A DNA stretch of 6,049 nucleotides from a virus: the IMG/VR virus record IMGVR_UViG_3300045988_013202, positions 1 to 6,049 of that record, one strand, 5' to 3'. The notes under the pieces were generated by a model. The model did no database searches and had not been told where the DNA came from. It worked only from the letters and a program-made list of their open reading frames with translations. The position numbers were made by a program, and so were the translations under genes. Below, piece by piece: positions 1-6,049 of this stretch; position 1 is the first letter of the stretch, and every line of letters begins with the position of its first letter.

Positions 1-99
1 ATTTTTTTTGCTTCGGCTTCATTCTTATCTGCTTGGCTTTCGTTAAGTCTTGTTTGACTCATTACATTTGCCAATTGTAGAGCCATTCCTTGCGCTTGG
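1..99. repeat. Terminal direct repeat, copy 1 (assembly overlap of a circular genome)
   Basis: Base-by-base comparison shows 1-99 identical to 5951-6049. The repeat lies inside an open reading frame that reads continuously across the junction. Confidence 0.95.
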
Positions 100-422
100 A
101 GTCCTACTTCTGTTCCTGTTTTGTTAGGTTGTCCTACTCCGCTAGCTTGTCCTGCTCCGCTCGTGCTTCCGCCTGCTCCACTCTGTCCGTATATAAGGCC
201 AGGGCTTAGCCCTGCGCCTTGTATGTGTCGCATAGTGTTTTCATAATTGGTATAATTCCATAAATCCTTTGCCAATCCTGTGGAATAAAACGCTTGTTGT
301 CTATTTAGCTCCGCTTGGTGCTCCATCAATTGTTTATTCTCTTCAAATTGGTCTTTTTTCGCCTGATTGCCCATTATTCCTTTGGCAATTCCGGCTCCTA
401 TACCTATTATCGCTCCTAGCAT
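1..422 (-). CDS. VP2: DNA pilot / minor capsid protein VP2 (phiX174 H-like), 5' part; continues across the circular junction into 5335-5950
   Basis: The ATG at 422-420 is the first start after an in-frame TAA at 431-429. My translation is MLGAIIGIGAGIAKGIMGNQAKKDQFEENKQLMEHQAELNRQQAFYSTGLAKDLWNYTNYENTMRHIQGAGLSPGLIYGQSGAGGSTSGAGQASGVGQPNKTGTEVGLQAQG, followed by MALQLANV, which is the start of the 5335-6036 track ORF. 422 minus 86 is 336, which is 112 codons, so the two parts are in frame. The protein has a Gly-zipper hydrophobic N-terminus, an NYENTM..AGLSPGLIYG motif and a Gly-rich linker, all typical of microvirus VP2. The ORF track missed this part because it runs off the left edge. Confidence 0.85.
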   Translation of the reverse strand, partial: MLGAIIGIGAGIAKGIMGNQAKKDQFEENKQLMEHQAELNRQQAFYSTGLAKDLWNYTNYENTMRHIQGAGLSPGLIYGQSGAGGSTSGAGQASGVGQPNKTGTEVGLQAQGMALQLANVMSQTRLNESQADKNEAEAKK

Positions 423-439
423 AATTATTTACATTTTCG

Positions 440-459
440 CGCTTTCATGTTTGAAAGCG
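440..459. other. Perfect 8-bp hairpin (cgctttca / tgaaagcg, loop tgtt) just upstream of the VP2 start
   Basis: Pairs 440-447 with 452-459 by direct reading. It sits 18 nt upstream of the VP2 ATG on the coding strand. No U-tract follows on either strand. Confidence 0.6.
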
Positions 460-503
460 ATATTCATATTACTTGATAATAAATTGTAGGTGCGTACTTT
501 CGT

Positions 504-534
504 GTATTTTCCGGTAATTAAACCGGACAAATAC
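504..534. other. Long intergenic hairpin: 12 bp with one bulge and a 6-nt AT loop
   Basis: 504-509 pair with 529-534 and 510-515 pair with 522-526 plus 527. c528 is bulged and the loop is 516-521 (aattaa; TTAATT on the coding strand). It is flanked by a further 8-bp long-range complement, ttgtaggt at 484-491 with acctacaa at 550-557. Confidence 0.6.
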
Positions 535-560
535 TCCGAAGTGCTTGTTACCTACAAGGC

Positions 561-580
561 TTTGAAGATACTTCTTCAAA
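561..580. other. Perfect 8-bp hairpin immediately after the stop of the VP3-like gene
   Basis: tttgaaga (561-568) pairs with tcttcaaa (573-580), loop tact. It begins 4 nt after the TAA at 587-585 on the coding strand. The stem is AT-rich with no U-tail, so it is at best a weak terminator. Confidence 0.45.
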
Positions 581-584
581 CAGT

Positions 585-902
585 TTAGTTTTCAGAGGGA
601 GAGCCTCCCGATGTTTTATTGGGTACATTTCCAAAATCTTCAGGTTTTGGAGCTATTTCTTTCTTTGCTGCTACTCTTGTGATTTTATCGTAGGCGTCCA
701 TAGCTATATCAAACCTGTCTGTTCGTATATTGTACGCTGGTAGTACACCGTCTTCTTTTGCTGTATAGATAATTGGTGCTGTATCTGTAATCGGTTCTTT
801 GTCTTGAAGGATTCTTGCGCATTTTGTTTCAATGCTTTCACCTTCGTAGATTTCTATTGATTTTAATCTACCGTTATTTTTTGATGGAAATGAATATTTC
901 AT
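585..902 (-). CDS. Small conserved microvirus protein, probably the internal scaffolding protein (VP3-like)
   Basis: 105 aa from the ATG at 902. The segment PIIYTAKEDGVLPAYNIRTDRFDIAMDAYDK matches my recollection of a motif conserved in gokushovirus-type VP3 scaffold proteins (..DGV.P.Y.IRTDR..A..A.D.). This is from memory and not searched. The track start at 941 is a GTG that overlaps the VP1 3' end, so I prefer the ATG at 902, 13 nt after the VP1 stop. Confidence 0.6.
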   Translation of the reverse strand: MKYSFPSKNNGRLKSIEIYEGESIETKCARILQDKEPITDTAPIIYTAKEDGVLPAYNIRTDRFDIAMDAYDKITRVAAKKEIAPKPEDFGNVPNKTSGGSPSEN

Positions 903-915
903 AATGTTATAATTT

Positions 916-2850
916 TTATAAATTAGGAATTTGTTTTGCACTAATTAGACGTCTTACTTTGATGTCAAACTTCGTTTGTACCCAGAAGTTCATAGCGTCT
1001 AGATTTGTATCTGCAAAGATGTAATTGAATTTTACTGGGTCTATATAAGTTGTTAAGTCTTCGATTTGTTTGTTTGCACTGATTGAGTAGTTACGATTGA
1101 GTACCATAAAGCTCTCGCTCATTCCAGGTGCGAAGTTTCCGAACGTCCTGTTTACATTTGTCATGTAGTTAATCCAAGCTACCGTTTTACCTGCAGATGT
1201 ACGTTTTAAGCCTAGGTCTGGTGTAAAATAGTCTGTCCACCATGCACGTTCGCCGTTTAATGAATCTTGGTATCCGATTCCATCCAGTGCTGGTTTGTGC
1301 CAATCATCCATTGTTTCTAGGTATGTATCCCAGGTATTTCCCTGTCCGTAGTCGATTCGTGGAGTGATTGAACAGATACACATAATATAACATGGTTCTG
1401 TTACTTTGATACGGATATGTCCGCCTTTTTGTTTCCCCGTCGTCACCCCTCGTCCGGCTAGTGTTCCTAGTGGTTCGTCTCCGGATGCGCTGTTGCTTAC
1501 TACTTCTTGGAATACAATTTCTTGGCTTACACCGCCTTCGAATGTTGGTGTTTCGCATCTCTCCATATAGTTGCCTCCAGTGTATACTGTTTCTAGCCAA
1601 TCACGGTAAGTTCCTCCTGAAACTGCGATTCTGTTGAGGAAGTTGTATACCTTCTGTGACAGGTTTAAGGCGTCCATTGATAACGTACCGTCTGATACGT
1701 CTACGGCGCTTGCTTCGTTGATTCCGTTTACACCTTCTATCCACTCCGTGTTTATCCAGTTTTGATATAAGTCACTGTTGTAAGTTTTTAGACATAATCC
1801 GTATTGTGGATCCGTTGTGTTTAGTTTACTGTTTACGGCTTTTCTTTTTGCGAAATTAATGAATGGCTCTACACTCATTGATGCATTCGATATATCAAAT
1901 ACGGTATCTCCTGCCGTTAATAGTATTTTATCCCTGATTGTGTCTAGGTTTTCTAGTGGATAATTTTCTAGTGTTATTCTGTTTATTGTTTGTATACTTC
2001 GGATATACCATGTTTCCCCCTCTGGGACTTTGTTCGTTGTTATTGTTATTGCTTCTCCTACTATTTTCCATGTACCTATGTCTCCCGGTGTAAGTGTTAC
2101 ACTTTGTCCTATTGGTGAATCTTTTGCGACCTTGATTTGTACTTCGTTTTGTTTTATTGTATTTGGAGCTATGGTTATTACTCCTGCGTTGTTGATTCTA
2201 CCTTCGTTGCTTGGAATTACGTTCGGGTTTACCTCTGTTCCGTTGATTGTTATTGTTATTTCTTCAGTATTTCCGATAATGTAGAAGTTCTCTTCTTGCG
2301 TGTTGGCGTAGTAGTTTTTAAAGATGTCATAGTATGCTAGTATTGGTAGTGCGTTTTTGGATGTTTTTTTTGCGTTTGTCCCTGCCATGTTCGCAAAACC
2401 TCTTATTCCTAGGTATGCAAGTAAACAACTTGGGTTTACTTGATTCCATTGCTCCTCCTCTGTTGTTATGGTGTCGTATTGGCTGTTTAGTGTTACGTAT
2501 ATTTGTGGTAATTTTACTTGTGCCATATTCAGACCGATTTTTGTTCGGTTGTTATGTAGCCAGCTGTTATATAATCTTACAGGTGCCGCATAGATGTGAT
2601 GCTCCAGTTTGAATGACCCGAATAGAGGTCCTGTTGTTGGATGAGTAAGTACGTTTGCGTCTACATCGATGTCGAATGTATCACCTTTTTGCCCTACTAA
2701 ACATAGGTTTGGCACTAATGTTCCAGGACTCTGCGTGTTTCTTACAATGGTTGACAAGTCATGGGTTGACATGTTGTACTCATGCAGGCTTACTGCCATT
2801 TTATTGTTGTCTCCTATGGTATTTTTACCGATATTCTTTTGAATTGACAT
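916..2850 (-). CDS. VP1: Major capsid protein VP1 (phiX174 F-like jelly-roll)
   Basis: 644 aa, the largest ORF. Family-typical segments include HDLS....T...G.L.P, GD.F.I, FKLEHHIYAAPVRLYNSW, ALPILAYYDIFKNYYAN and LNRIAVSGGTYRDWLETVYTG. The ATG at 2850 is preceded by AGGAGG at an 8-nt spacing. Confidence 0.95.
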   Translation of the reverse strand: MSIQKNIGKNTIGDNNKMAVSLHEYNMSTHDLSTIVRNTQSPGTLVPNLCLVGQKGDTFDIDVDANVLTHPTTGPLFGSFKLEHHIYAAPVRLYNSWLHNNRTKIGLNMAQVKLPQIYVTLNSQYDTITTEEEQWNQVNPSCLLAYLGIRGFANMAGTNAKKTSKNALPILAYYDIFKNYYANTQEENFYIIGNTEEITITINGTEVNPNVIPSNEGRINNAGVITIAPNTIKQNEVQIKVAKDSPIGQSVTLTPGDIGTWKIVGEAITITTNKVPEGETWYIRSIQTINRITLENYPLENLDTIRDKILLTAGDTVFDISNASMSVEPFINFAKRKAVNSKLNTTDPQYGLCLKTYNSDLYQNWINTEWIEGVNGINEASAVDVSDGTLSMDALNLSQKVYNFLNRIAVSGGTYRDWLETVYTGGNYMERCETPTFEGGVSQEIVFQEVVSNSASGDEPLGTLAGRGVTTGKQKGGHIRIKVTEPCYIMCICSITPRIDYGQGNTWDTYLETMDDWHKPALDGIGYQDSLNGERAWWTDYFTPDLGLKRTSAGKTVAWINYMTNVNRTFGNFAPGMSESFMVLNRNYSISANKQIEDLTTYIDPVKFNYIFADTNLDAMNFWVQTKFDIKVRRLISAKQIPNL

Positions 2851-2853
2851 AGT

Positions 2854-3120
2854 TTAATCCTCCTTTTTAGTATTTTTTTTAAATTTTTTTGCAGTACGTT
2901 CAATTCTTTTTTCGTGTTCGTCTGCTTCCTTACACGCATATATTAATGCTGCAACTAGATTCCAATTTGTTGAATCTATTACGTATTGCGCATCTTCTCG
3001 TGATTCGAATTTTTCTGGTGTTGCTAAATGTTTTCCAATTACAATCATGAATTCATTTTCTTCTGTTGAAGTTGGCAATACTTTGAACACATCTTTCATG
3101 TTATTAAATTCTCTTTCCAT
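2854..3120 (-). CDS. Hypothetical protein (88 aa), acidic body with a basic C-terminal tail
   Basis: ATG start. It is packed 5 nt after the upstream gene and 3 nt before VP1. Amino-acid composition looks normal and the C-terminus is KKFKKNTKKED. I recognise no homolog. Confidence 0.55.
   Translation of the reverse strand: MEREFNNMKDVFKVLPTSTEENEFMIVIGKHLATPEKFESREDAQYVIDSTNWNLVAALIYACKEADEHEKRIERTAKKFKKNTKKED
2859..2864 (-). promoter_or_regulatory. Shine-Dalgarno site for VP1
   Basis: The coding strand reads AAAGGAGGATTAAACT-ATG. The AGGAGG core lies 8 nt upstream of the start and is embedded in the last codons of the upstream ORF. Confidence 0.8.
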
Positions 3121-3125
3121 TTTTT

Positions 3126-3332
3126 TTAATAGTTTTTAGGGTTAATATTAATGTGTGTGCTATCAACGCTTGATGTTGTTGTTTGTTCGGTCTTCTGCGT
3201 TGAGTTTTGATTGTTTTTGCTTACGCTTAGGCTCATTGTACACGACTGCACACATAAGGTCGTAATTATAGCAATGATTGCCGTACTGATAGCTCGGATA
3301 ATTTCTATCCATTGGTTCCCGGTTATTTTCAT
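3126..3332 (-). CDS. Small membrane or secreted protein (68 aa); candidate lysis or envelope-acting protein
   Basis: ATG start, 2 nt after the upstream stop. There is one N-terminal hydrophobic helix (WIEIIRAISTAIIAIITTLCV) followed by Cys residues (LCVQSC) and a polar S/T/N/Q-rich tail. Confidence 0.55.
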   Translation of the reverse strand: MKITGNQWIEIIRAISTAIIAIITTLCVQSCTMSLSVSKNNQNSTQKTEQTTTSSVDSTHININPKNY

Positions 3333-3334
3333 GT

Positions 3335-3589
3335 TTAAAATAATTTAAGTTGTTTATGATTCCATTTTTTTAAATCTTCTACATCTTTGTCATAAGTTTT
3401 TTCGCATATTAACCTCCTTCCTTGTTTTGTGAAGATATATTTTTTTGTAATAACATCTTCTTCTAGTTCGTAACAAATTTTTTTCATATTTATTGGCGTG
3501 TTGAAGTACATGTAATTTTTTAGCTCTCGAAATGTATTGAAAATATATCCGCCTGCTTCGTATTTTCTAATCTTTTTCGGTTTTTTCAT
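3335..3589 (-). CDS. Hypothetical protein (84 aa), basic N-terminus
   Basis: ATG start (MKKPKKIRKY...). It overlaps the 3' end of the upstream gene by 23 nt and ends 2 nt before the next gene. No homolog recognised. Confidence 0.5.
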   Translation of the reverse strand: MKKPKKIRKYEAGGYIFNTFRELKNYMYFNTPINMKKICYELEEDVITKKYIFTKQGRRLICEKTYDKDVEDLKKWNHKQLKLF

Positions 3590-3767
3590 TTTCGTTAGGA
3601 TATAATTTCCATGATTCTACTACACATACTAGTTTGGTTTCTTCCGGGTCGTTTAGCATTTTGGCGAATTTTTCCGCTATTTTATATGTGTTCATACCCG
3701 GAATTTCTCTTTCGACAATTTTACCTTCGTTGTTTGCATAGATTGCTGTAAATTTTGTTGCTGCCAT
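3567..3767 (-). CDS. Hypothetical protein (66 aa)
   Basis: ATG start 2 nt after the upstream TAA, which suggests translational coupling. The composition looks globular (MAATKFTAIYANNEGKIVEREIPG...). No homolog recognised. Confidence 0.5.
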   Translation of the reverse strand: MAATKFTAIYANNEGKIVEREIPGMNTYKIAEKFAKMLNDPEETKLVCVVESWKLYPNENEKTEKD

Positions 3768-3769
3768 AA

Positions 3770-3916
3770 TTAAAAAGTTCTTTTTGTTGTTATTAATTTT
3801 ATTTCTCTTCCTTCTACTTCTTGATACGCGAAGTAGTGTCTTGTTGCGATACGTGTCGGTATATTCTTGATGATTACCGCTTTAAATCCACGTACTTTTG
3901 TTCTTGTTGTTAACAT
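3770..3916 (-). CDS. Small highly basic protein (48 aa); possible J/VP8-like ssDNA-binding packaging protein
   Basis: The internal ATG at 3916 is preceded by a perfect AAGGAGGT 4 nt upstream. The sequence is MLTTRTKVRGFKAVIIKNIPTRIATRHYFAYQEVEGREIKLITTKRTF, with 11 K/R against 3 E. The track's longer form starting at 4033 would read through promoter-like AT-rich sequence and has no RBS. Confidence 0.55.
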   Translation of the reverse strand: MLTTRTKVRGFKAVIIKNIPTRIATRHYFAYQEVEGREIKLITTKRTF

Positions 3917-3920
3917 ATTT

Positions 3921-3928
3921 ACCTCCTT
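3921..3928 (-). promoter_or_regulatory. Shine-Dalgarno site (AAGGAGGT) for the 48-aa basic protein
   Basis: The coding strand reads ACAAGGAGGTAAAT-ATG. This is the strongest RBS in the genome. Confidence 0.8.
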
Positions 3929-3946
3929 GTTTTTAATGACATTGCA

Positions 3947-3976
3947 AATATACTTGATTTTTCTGATTTCTGTAAA
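3947..3976 (-). promoter_or_regulatory. Candidate sigma70-type promoter for the small-ORF/VP1 operon
   Basis: The coding strand has TTTACA (3976-3971), an 18-nt spacer, then TATATT (3952-3947), each matching 5 of 6 consensus positions. It lies about 30 nt upstream of the SD. An exact TATAAT also occurs at 3990-3985, without a good -35. Confidence 0.4.
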
Positions 3977-4033
3977 TTTTTTGATTATATATTGATCTTT
4001 TAAACATTTATTAACAATAGTATCTTTAAGCAT

Positions 4034-4295
4034 GCGCGGCGTTTGAGCGCCGATAGAGCAATAGAGAGCGCGTAGCTCTCCTTAGCGACTAGCACCATAG
4101 TATCGGCAGAGCCGCACACCACGACCTTTGGTCGGGTGCACGTCATGCCATATCCCGGTCTTAAGGTAGCCGCCTCTCGGATAAAGGCACACCTCACCCT
4201 CCCGTTATACACCCTTGGCCACCCGGCCTTGAGGTGTTAAATACAGACCCGTGTGATGTTAGCATGGTACCCGCTGGACGTGCCCGAGCGCAGCC
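4034..4295 (-). other. GC-rich, highly structured non-coding island of unknown class (candidate ssDNA complementary-strand origin or structured RNA)
   Basis: I counted 158 G+C in 4031-4300 (about 58%). Spot counts elsewhere were 25% (3301-3360) and 45% (1201-1260). Only GTG-start or overlapping ORFs cross it. Local helices are 4037-4041/4048-4052, 4064-4069/4075-4080, 4114-4139 (10 bp, irregular), 4151-4183 (two-tier), and 4189-4196/4230-4237 (8 bp) enclosing 4217-4220/4225-4228. There is also an 11-bp long-range helix, 4132-4144/4277-4287. Confidence 0.6.
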
Positions 4296-5333
4296 CTATG
4301 TATAATATTGGTTATAATATAGATTGGCGAATATATCAATGTCTTTATTAAACTGATCTTGTTTTCTTTCCTCTTTTTTTCTTTCCTTCTCGGCGACCAT
4401 AGTCGCTTTAGATTCTGTCCACTGACGTTGTTTTTTGAGCCTGTTAAGGTATTTTCTATCTTCCCAGTCTTTGGGATTGTCGTGATACAGTCTTTCACAG
4501 CGTTCTCGTTCGCTTACGAGTACACCCATATATCGTGATTCTTCGGTCTTTAGGTCTATTTTAATGCCTAATACGTATACAATTCCTTTTTCAATTTTGT
4601 CTAGGAATAGTTTTTCACGCTCTTCTTCTGTAAATATTTTGTTTCTGTAATAAATTGGTAGATTGAGTTTTCCACCGTTTCTCATCCGGTATGATTCGTT
4701 TGTTTCGCCTTGTTTGTATATGTGCTTCTTGGCGTCCTCTCGCTTGAGGTATCCTGCCCCTATTCCTGCCGAGCATAATACTTTCCCTCTGAATTTTGGA
4801 TGTTTCTCGTCAATTTTTAACATGTATTTTGTAATGTAGTTTATAGTTTTTTCATTCACAAAATATCCGGTGAATGTGATTCCGTATTTCCAATTGTCCG
4901 TTACTTTCTTTCCATTTCCCAAGCCCCATACTATCCCATGCAGATGTAATCTTTCTGTTTTCTCGTGTCCTAGTTCTGTAATGAACCAGTGCTTTATGGA
5001 TTTTCCGGTTAACTTTCGTACTCTTTCTAAACATAGTCTTATAGCTTTTGTTGCAATATCGTTATTGTCTTTTAACTTGTATTTTTGTTTTAGTTGCTTG
5101 TATGATTTATCATCGATTGTTAGTGTCAGGAAATAGGCATTCGGTGTTTGTCTGTTTTCTTCTGACATTCTTACCACCCATTGTCTTTGCTTTTGTTTCC
5201 TGCATTCATAACAGTCTCCACAGGCTGCCGTTACATAACGTAACCTTTCATCAGGACAAACAGGCGGTATCCCACCATTTTTCTTAGTTGGTAGGTACCG
5301 CTTATTTGGTATGAGTTTCGGATATAGACACAT
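4296..5333 (-). CDS. VP4: Rolling-circle replication initiator VP4 (HUH endonuclease, phiX174 A-like)
   Basis: 345 aa. Motif I is FLTLT (5118-5132). Motif II is HLH within RLHLHGIVW (4938-4946, verified as CAT CTG CAT). Motif III is YITKYMLK with two Tyr spaced as in phiX174 A (4815-4838, verified as TAC ATT ACA AAA TAC ATG TTA AAA). There is an N-terminal Cys cluster (C..C...CGDCYEC). The ATG lies 1 nt after the VP2 stop. Confidence 0.93.
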   Translation of the reverse strand: MCLYPKLIPNKRYLPTKKNGGIPPVCPDERLRYVTAACGDCYECRKQKQRQWVVRMSEENRQTPNAYFLTLTIDDKSYKQLKQKYKLKDNNDIATKAIRLCLERVRKLTGKSIKHWFITELGHEKTERLHLHGIVWGLGNGKKVTDNWKYGITFTGYFVNEKTINYITKYMLKIDEKHPKFRGKVLCSAGIGAGYLKREDAKKHIYKQGETNESYRMRNGGKLNLPIYYRNKIFTEEEREKLFLDKIEKGIVYVLGIKIDLKTEESRYMGVLVSERERCERLYHDNPKDWEDRKYLNRLKKQRQWTESKATMVAEKERKKEERKQDQFNKDIDIFANLYYNQYYT

Positions 5334-5334
5334 A

Positions 5335-6049
5335 TTATTGAAGTCCTGTTTTTCCTACTTTTGCTCCTAGTGCCATTCCTGCACTTTTCGATGCTATTTC
5401 TAGCATTCCTAGTATAATGTCTTTGACGAGTTTTTGCTCTTCAATGTCCAGACCTTTTTTGCCTAAGTCGTATCTATTGAATACATCTTGTACATAGGCT
5501 TCCATTTGTTCTTTTTGGATGATTAATGCCTTTCCTTTTTTGGTAAGCTCTTCCCATCCTTGTAGAATTTGCGCTGGAATTGCTTTTGCTTGCTCTTCAT
5601 TGACTTTTCTCTGGCTTCCTTTGAGTAATATTTCACTCATCAGATTTTGAAGCGTTAACGAGCTTTCTTTTACTTTATTGTCGATTGTTCGTTCTTTTAA
5701 CTCGTTGTCGAGTTTCATCCCGTTGATTTCTTCAGCTAGTTTATCAATTCCCTTTTGTAGGCTCTTGATGTTCCAGCGTGTTTCATCGGCTTTGTCTTTT
5801 GTCCAATCGGCCATGTTTCGTTTGAGTTCCTCTTCTGCATCTGCTACTCTGATTTGTCCTAAGATGAGTCCTTTCTTCACTTTTTCGTTTGAAGTTTGCG
5901 CTATCAGGTTATCAATGGTAGCTTCTTGTGCTCTGGTGTCTACACCGCTTATTTTTTTTGCTTCGGCTTCATTCTTATCTGCTTGGCTTTCGTTAAGTCT
6001 TGTTTGACTCATTACATTTGCCAATTGTAGAGCCATTCCTTGCGCTTGG
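5335..6049 (-). CDS. VP2: VP2 pilot protein, 3' part (the full gene is 422..1 joined to 5950..5335, 345 aa)
   Basis: The frame stays open upstream of the track start M at 6036 (codons ...LQAQG-M), so that M is internal. The region is long, charged and coiled-coil-like (EAEAKK...LKERTIDNKVKE...), as in H/VP2 tube proteins. Its TAA stop at 5337-5335 lies 1 nt from the Rep ATG. Confidence 0.85.
   Translation of the reverse strand, partial: QAQGMALQLANVMSQTRLNESQADKNEAEAKKISGVDTRAQEATIDNLIAQTSNEKVKKGLILGQIRVADAEEELKRNMADWTKDKADETRWNIKSLQKGIDKLAEEINGMKLDNELKERTIDNKVKESSLTLQNLMSEILLKGSQRKVNEEQAKAIPAQILQGWEELTKKGKALIIQKEQMEAYVQDVFNRYDLGKKGLDIEEQKLVKDIILGMLEIASKSAGMALGAKVGKTGLQ
5951..6049. repeat. 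Terminal direct repeat, copy 2 (assembly overlap; unit genome length 5950 nt)
   Basis: Identical to 1-99. The offset of 5950 nt fits the typical microvirus genome size. Confidence 0.95.

Follow-up and report, generated by a model that had tools for sequence, protein, structure and literature searches.

All genes of the circular microvirus genome in IMG/VR virus record IMGVR_UViG_3300045988_013202 (positions 1 to 6,049; this whole stretch of 6,049 nucleotides is called the window) lie on the minus strand, and between the replication initiation gene (Rep) and a set of small genes there is a GC-rich segment at positions 4034-4295. What does this segment do, and on which strand does it act? A first-pass annotation, made from the letters of the window alone, had described a GC-rich non-coding island that begins directly at the Rep stop codon. 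This description is borne out: G+C is 59.2% in 4034-4295 but 37.1% across the remainder of the window and as low as 20.5% in the neighbouring 3917-4033, and the stop codon of Rep (TAG, 4296-4298) abuts the island. Judged by its sequence and by those of its relatives, the island is a real, conserved, non-coding structured element. We propose, at about an even chance of being right, that it is a host-dependent complementary-strand origin that folds in the single-stranded DNA (ssDNA) of the virion and is comparable to the single-strand origins (sso) of plasmids. The first-pass annotation had weighed a folded-ssDNA origin of complementary-strand synthesis against a structured RNA. The origin fits best with the orientation of the element, its portability and the swaps at its locus, and the priming itself is among the steps that we infer.

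The island belongs to a family that spans more than 180 microvirus contigs. Exact-pattern scans recovered it in 64 microvirus contigs of IMG/VR and in at least 119 stretches of metagenomes, almost all of about 6 kb, and by BLAST a shared core is found in microviruses from tortoise, rat, lemur and human. For this core a covariance model was built on a three-way-junction structure that we later demoted; it scores 70-91 bits on 77 metagenome copies. Among 185,579 genomes of bacteria and archaea, none matches the strict pattern. When the pattern was loosened, 11 matches turned up in bacterial genomes, none of which fits the covariance model, and five soil contigs that matched a pattern have no score with the model either; we regard both sets as chance matches. 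The earlier statement that the island falls into no known family stands, as Rfam 15 returns nothing for the island of the window at E values up to 10 and ARAGORN reports no transfer RNA (tRNA) or transfer-messenger RNA (tmRNA) gene in the window. Six loci that carry other types of the element have no Rfam match at E values up to 1. Literature searches yielded no description of the element or of microvirus strand polarity. The element family is new, and in kind it resembles known single-strand origins.

An artefact might be suspected at such a locus, either an assembly chimera or an unrecognised protein-coding segment, given that the composition of the island is foreign to the rest of the genome and that one larger element-carrying contig is chimeric. 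However, more than 180 contigs, drawn from many different studies and hosts, have the same junctions, and a GenBank genome of roughly 90% identity (PV067927, human gut, 91% identical) has the island in place. There is no conserved open reading frame (ORF). Relatives differ by insertions and deletions of 1-5 nt in loops and by compensatory substitutions, and such length changes, which are not multiples of three, together with the paired substitutions exclude a coding function. An ATG at 4033 is not conserved, and the same frame is stopped in a relative of about 90% identity, as read by eye in alignments. We consider the likelihood of a chimera or a coding segment to be negligible. The idea of a prophage or an attachment site was also rejected: the only contig with bacterial genes (L097, contig OGMW01001653.1) joins them in the middle of the gene for the major capsid protein (VP1) and is a chimera. 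In this contig cardiolipin synthase, Hsp33 and RpiA lie beside the microvirus, the junction is at about 5812-5830 and VP1 is without its first ~106 residues; an assembly chimera is most likely, not a prophage. A further contig, L088, is an inverted-dimer assembly.

The orientation of the element is one line of evidence for our proposal. Among 172 contigs with a clear gene strand, the element is gene-sense in 137 and antisense to every gene in 35. The complete genomes fall into two clusters. G1 comprises 103 genomes, the window among them, and in all of these the element is sense; in all 30 genomes of G2 it is antisense. At four-fold degenerate sites, the AT skew of the coding strand is +0.64 +/- 0.08 in G1 (+0.65 in the window) and -0.665 +/- 0.05 in G2, with ranges that do not overlap. 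Because these skews are mirror images and the gene directions are opposite, the element has one and the same direction on the strand-biased genome throughout: taking skew as a proxy for the packaged strand, its orientation relative to strand asymmetry is identical in 133 of 133 complete genomes. The orientation of the element thus tracks strand asymmetry and not gene direction, and this is one of the reasons why we favour a complementary-strand origin.

The skew also points to a particular strand. The coding strands of phiX174 (AT skew -0.62), Chp2 (-0.38) and SpV4 (-0.42) are T-rich, and in all three we take the coding strand to be the virion strand. The ssDNA phages are known to prefer NNT codons, a preference that has been ascribed to C-to-T change in the exposed strand (PMC3278643). 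In the window, T makes up 41.7% of the plus strand, and by the skew proxy we infer that this T-rich plus strand is the packaged one. The first-pass annotation had assigned folding and packaging to the coding strand; the evidence favours the plus strand of the window, which is non-coding here. As a separate observation, the deposited coding strand of Bdellovibrio phage phiMH2K (L204) contains 34.8% A and 27.8% C, with an AT skew of +0.25 and a GC skew of -0.60, a pattern that is the complement of the usual virion-strand pattern.

The element is portable. Copies that are 85-87% identical occur in phages whose VP1 proteins are only about 22% identical by tblastn, and the Reps of those phages (556 aa versus 345 aa) have no similarity that tblastn can detect. 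Copies so similar, despite capsids so different, show that the element has been exchanged horizontally. In keeping with exchange, element types do not track phage relatedness: types E1 and E2 are present in both carrier clades, and a different element type is present in a phage whose VP1 and Rep are 73% identical. Exchange between phages with unrelated Reps argues for a dependence on host factors and not on a cognate Rep, and a dependence of this kind would make the element swappable between unrelated microviruses. Two close relatives, Dulem virus 214 and Microvirus mar40, are without the element core. At the same locus downstream of Rep they contain non-coding, moderately GC-rich inserts (4657-4910 in Dulem virus 214, L207; 4711-4947 in mar40, L208), which may be alternative cassettes with the same role. 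Both of these element-less genomes share the A-rich coding strand, with skews of +0.60 and +0.49, respectively.

Horizontal exchange between very distant phages and a patchy presence among relatives are also what one might see of a selfish, non-autonomous mobile insert, similar to a miniature inverted-repeat transposable element and of no benefit to the phage. Such an insert is hard to reconcile with a single locus per clade, upstream of the small-gene cluster, with an orientation that is fixed per clade, and with a core that is under strong purifying selection and has compensatory changes. Neither terminal inverted repeats nor target duplications are seen in the element alignments, and the genomes concerned are compact, at only 6 kb. 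We therefore judge a selfish insert to be highly improbable.

What, then, is conserved within the element? The first-pass annotation had called the island dense with helices. Folded as a single sequence, the island is not clearly beyond shuffles (z-scores of -1.78 and -1.48 as RNA and -1.66 as DNA); its structure emerges only when relatives are compared. Four hairpins, at 4115-4140, 4104-4114, 4063-4081 and 4034-4050, have compensatory changes, and we give them here for the plus strand. The long hairpin HP-I (4115-4140) pairs 4117-4120 with 4135-4138 and 4122-4126 with 4130-4134, with one bulge and a TTT loop. In HP-I, 97.9% of cells are paired (100% within type A, the type of the window) and 5 pairs have changed on both sides. 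The adjacent mini-hairpin HP-II (4104-4114) reads CGGC-AGA-GCCG, and its middle pair covaries (GC 22, CG 19, AU 5). On the plus strand the HP-II loop is AAA, GAA, GGA, AGA or GTA, with one of the first three in most relatives, and it is closed by C-G. GNA triloops with C-G closure form very stable DNA mini-hairpins. For HP-I and HP-II together, 97.7% of cells are paired versus 86.0% in shuffles and 19-52% in controls with slid partners, and six pairs have changed on both sides.

Two further hairpins lie nearer to the small genes. H5 (4063-4081; stem 4064-4069/4075-4080, 5-nt loop) has 100% of cells paired and two compensatory pairs within type A, and other element types have different stem sequences at its position. 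H6 (4034-4050; stem 4034-4037/4047-4050, conserved 9-nt loop) has 95.8% of cells paired and two compensatory pairs, at one of which three kinds of base pair occur (CG 11, GC 10, UA 2). Since the best-supported model consists of the long hairpin 4115-4140 and the mini-hairpin 4104-4114, positions 4082-4103 are left unpaired. These are the most conserved columns of the family. On the plus strand this invariant stretch reads TTAGCGA-CTAGCACC-ATAGTAT, and it holds the hexamer TAGCGA (4083-4088) followed by CTAGCACC (4089-4096).

Towards Rep, the middle region (4141-4188, plus strand) contains a block, AAGGTAG at 4163-4169, that is conserved across all element types. The words CACC, GGTG, AGGT and ACCT recur, at 4163-4169, 4189-4196, 4230-4237 and other places in the island, and several mutually exclusive pairings can be drawn, including some with the invariant stretch. 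None of the pairings in the middle region has clean covariation, and the recurring words could reflect alternative conformations. Next to it, an 8-bp helix (4189-4196/4230-4237) that the first-pass annotation had singled out is exact in the window. On the plus strand it closes a domain, 4189-4237, that encloses the hairpin GGCC-ACCC-GGCC (4217-4228) and a conserved TTATAC box (4205-4210); within type A, 82% of the cells of the helix are paired and its inner six pairs are mostly kept. The outer domain (4238-4295, plus strand), which adjoins the Rep stop, is completely different between element types; in its place, type B has a pair of covarying hairpins. A supposed long-range helix of 11 bp is reduced to a perfect pairing of 7 bp (4138-4144/4277-4283), and by eye in the alignment it is poorly kept in relatives. 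GCGCTC does occur three times on the minus strand, as first noticed. This recurrence is not unusual, as 19 of 200 shuffles have at least three copies.

A three-way junction was tried as an alternative fold of the core and rejected. Both of its specific helices are without double-sided covariation, varying on one side or not at all, and the junction is also contradicted by core columns 15:40 (C-G 36, U-A 10), which are paired in the competing long hairpin. Brute-force covariation scans of column pairs and of helices were swamped by clade structure. The first-pass annotation had asked which strand preserves wobble pairs, and the answer is a qualified one in favour of the plus strand. We used a strand-neutral consensus for each element cluster, with Watson-Crick pairs only, and counted departures from it: those that are A.C in gene sense, and hence G.T on the plus strand, fill 43 cells versus 14 for G.U. 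In the two large element clusters the counts are 21 versus 1. Of the intermediate states inspected by hand at compensatory pairs in HP-I and HP-II, all are of the A.C kind. An opposite signal in gene sense (95 G.U versus 15 A.C) was set aside because it came from the unsupported helices of the three-way junction.

These observations bear on the second idea of the first-pass annotation, namely that the island is transcribed as the 3' untranslated region of Rep or as an operon leader, and acts as a structured RNA, be it a decoy, an anti-defence RNA, a ribozyme or a riboswitch-like element. Such an RNA would be of gene-sense polarity in the window and would act in trans or in cis, perhaps also as a regulator. 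Compensatory changes suit an RNA equally with a DNA, and in the G1 clade the element would be co-transcribed with Rep. Promoter-like hexamers end just upstream of the 5' end of the element, and G.U wobbles can be drawn on the gene-sense strand, namely those counted in the three-way-junction model. However, the helices that supply these G.U pairs are the ones without double-sided covariation, and one of them conflicts with the 15:40 pair. In 30-35 genomes, where the element is flanked by terminator-like hairpins of the gene strand, it lies antisense to every gene, and in the window it lacks its own terminator. Neither the window nor the six other loci gave an Rfam match at the thresholds stated above, and there is no obvious reason for an RNA gene to follow the strand asymmetry of the genome. 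We thus disfavour the RNA and regard it as unlikely. At one G2 locus (L017, 5095-5680), gene-strand hairpins of the terminator-like kind, at 5671-5649 and 5115-5101, bracket the element; this locus also has a weak promoter-like site at 5467-5440 and, just upstream of the element, a short duplicate of the element's first 15 bases.

Returning to a complementary-strand origin, we suggest how it may work. After the circular single strand enters the cell, the GC-rich segment of the packaged strand would fold into the hairpins at 4034-4050, 4063-4081, 4104-4114 and 4115-4140 and the domain at 4189-4237. The hairpins would hold the invariant stretch of about 20 nt (4082-4103) exposed, and a priming system of the host would recognise the fold and make the primer for the second strand. 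Candidates for this system are RNA polymerase, as in plasmid sso elements and M13, primase, as in G4, or the PriA primosome, as in phiX174. An element of this type would work in one orientation only relative to the packaged strand. Both the folding in DNA and the priming function are put forward here on comparative grounds.

Outside the island, the window has a further site that bears on the polarity of the element. On the plus strand, which is T-rich and non-coding, a hairpin (440-446/453-459) is followed by ACTTGATA at 471-478, and we consider 440-478 a candidate cleavage site of Rep, and thus a candidate viral-strand origin. ACTTGATA is on the T-rich non-coding strand in 91 of the 103 G1 genomes and on the other strand in 4, and it is found at the same intergenic spot and on the same strand in two element-less relatives. 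Of the first 10 bases of the phiX174 origin, CAACTTGATA, a decamer that we take to be the sequence cleaved by the phiX174 Rep, 8 are matched by the 8-mer. In G2, CAACTTGAT occurs on the T-rich coding strand in 12-13 genomes. Many relatives read TGATATAAT at the motif of 471-478, and TGATATAAT doubles as an extended -10 consensus. When the whole 30-nt phiX174 origin was aligned to all genomes by a generic local method, the strands were not discriminated, so that only the 8-mer and its fixed location carry weight and the hint at polarity stays a lead. Measured from ACTTGATA, the element lies 0.607 +/- 0.027 genome lengths downstream; in phiX174, the F-G intergenic region, where the PriA site is located, lies at 0.625-0.645 from the origin.

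The presence of this second site is also relevant to the possibility that the phage Rep recognises the element itself, as a viral-strand origin or as a signal for termination. In favour of this, the plus strand of the core reads CCTTGATATCG in most variants, similar to the site CTTGATAT that is cleaved in phiX174; no type departs from the invariant core; and the orientation of the element is locked to strand polarity. However, the variant of the window is CCATAGTATCG, in which the resemblance to CTTGATAT is gone, and nearly identical elements accompany Reps of 345 aa and 556 aa with no detectable similarity to each other, a situation that should be intolerable for a Rep-specific site. Furthermore, the ACTTGATA site of G1, in the other intergenic region, is separate and better conserved. 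Recognition of the element by Rep is, in our estimation, very improbable.

Known single-strand origins offer the closest parallels to the complementary-strand origin that we propose. Plasmid sso elements are structured, about 160 nt long, fixed in orientation, flexible in position, limiting for host range and shuffled as cassettes (PMC5703833). The named types (ssoA, ssoU, ssoT, ssoW, ssoL) are, like the island, non-coding, strongly structured and 150-300 nt in size. They function only on the displaced strand and in one orientation, are host-dependent, and pass as cassettes from replicon to replicon even where the Reps are unrelated (PMC5703833); the island is likewise fixed in orientation, by the skew proxy, and exchanged between phages with undetectably similar Reps, and its host dependence would follow by analogy. 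A more specific likeness is suggestive only: the CS-6 hexamer of ssoA, which sits in a hairpin loop, is TAGCGT (PMC4598088), and the plus strand of element types A, C, D and E has TAGCG(A/T) in the conserved stretch that the best model leaves unpaired. Type B is without an exact match. Unlike ssoA, the element has no conserved counterpart of the RSB sequence (TTATGCCGAGAAAATTT-like), which binds RNA polymerase, that could be recognised by eye in the alignments. The island further differs from the plasmid elements in that its carrier is a phage and its sequence is similar to that of no plasmid.

Among the coliphages, the origins of G4 (oric, DnaG), phiX174 (n', PriA) and M13 (RNA polymerase) are, like the island, intergenic hairpins that flank an exposed conserved stretch. 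Those origins fold in the packaged strand and allow enzymes of the host to prime the second strand, as we propose for the island. The distance downstream from the viral-strand origin is also close to that in phiX174 (0.61 versus 0.63-0.65), a parallel that is suggestive only. In contrast to these origins, the island is larger and richer in G+C and, in G1, would lie on the strand complementary to the genes. Structured RNAs of phages and bacteria are comparable to the island in size, in G+C content and in having covarying helices. They differ in that no Rfam, tRNA or tmRNA model matches the island, which in one clade is oriented without regard to transcription units.

An ssDNA element need not prime. 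A strand-specific packaging or condensation signal, or a shield from host nucleases or defence sensors, would suit the strand-locked orientation, the portability and the stable hairpins equally. Yet every ssDNA replicon needs a start for its complementary strand, packaging of phiX174 is coupled to Rep and does not need a separate signal, and we know of no precedent in the Microviridae for a non-priming ssDNA element of this kind. We find such a role quite unlikely.

Several observations weigh against a complementary-strand origin. C-to-T pressure on the plus strand could give the wobble asymmetry without any structural selection, consensus folding energies do not separate the two strands, and invariant G.U pairs can be drawn in gene sense at the base of HP-I, at the base of H5 and in the three-way-junction alternative. 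Pairing has been assigned for only about half of the element. The 133 complete genomes represent two carrier clades and roughly 2-4 transfers between them, which gives their uniform orientation a modest statistical weight. Finally, there is no homology to any known origin among those searched: BLAST found nothing meaningful in plasmids, and the core model reaches at most 11.5 bits on phiX174 (E = 0.32), with G4 not searched.

As to the surroundings of the element, the window has an exact terminal redundancy of 99 bases (1-99 = 5951-6049), which makes it a circular genome with a unit length of 5950. On the minus strand it encodes VP1 (916-2850), five small ORFs (2854-3916, from the ORF list), the Rep of 345 aa (4296-5333; PHROG 942, E = 5.6e-27) and a pilot-like protein. 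The ORF of the latter is listed at 5335-6036 and runs over the junction to an ATG near 424; read in this way it comes to about 345 aa, matching the annotation of PV067927. Homology with copies from the other clade extends from 4295 down to about 4016, and the whole exchangeable module, with the plus strand as the proposed folding strand, is 4016-4295: the GC-rich core (4034-4295) and a tail (4016-4033) that is AT-rich and conserved. For the first small gene, the most likely start is the ATG at 3916, behind AAGGAGG, so that the non-coding stretch would be 3917-4295. Its AT-rich part, the spacer from the element to the first small gene (3917-4033), has on the minus strand a promoter-like TTTACA-18-TATATT from 3976 to 3947; counts from sigma-70 promoter scans were near the shuffle expectation.

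To our knowledge, plasmids and a few model coliphages are the only replicons with known complementary-strand origins. Our literature searches found none described for the microviruses that dominate gut ssDNA viromes. An alignable element with mapped hairpins and an invariant stretch is a target for priming assays and for synthetic, rebootable microvirus genomes. If the element is host-specific, the carriers of one type may share hosts, and this could be of use in host prediction. Horizontal transfer across microvirus families has been reported to be near-absent (PMC9239249), and in contrast to that report we see a 280-nt non-coding module exchanged between phages whose capsid proteins are about 22% identical. 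The element family, its exchange across families and its use as a marker of polarity are new.

The mirror-image skew at synonymous sites hints at an uncoupling of the gene strand from the packaged strand within the Microviridae. In its specific form, to which we assign somewhat less than an even chance, this would mean that the G1 clade, a large group of microviruses of animal guts, together with Dulem virus 214 and mar40, packages the strand complementary to all of its genes, and that these are negative-sense phages which begin their second strand at a portable, host-specific origin cassette that microvirus families trade with one another. If true, the uncoupling of gene strand and packaged strand would change how microvirus genomes are to be oriented, annotated and classified.

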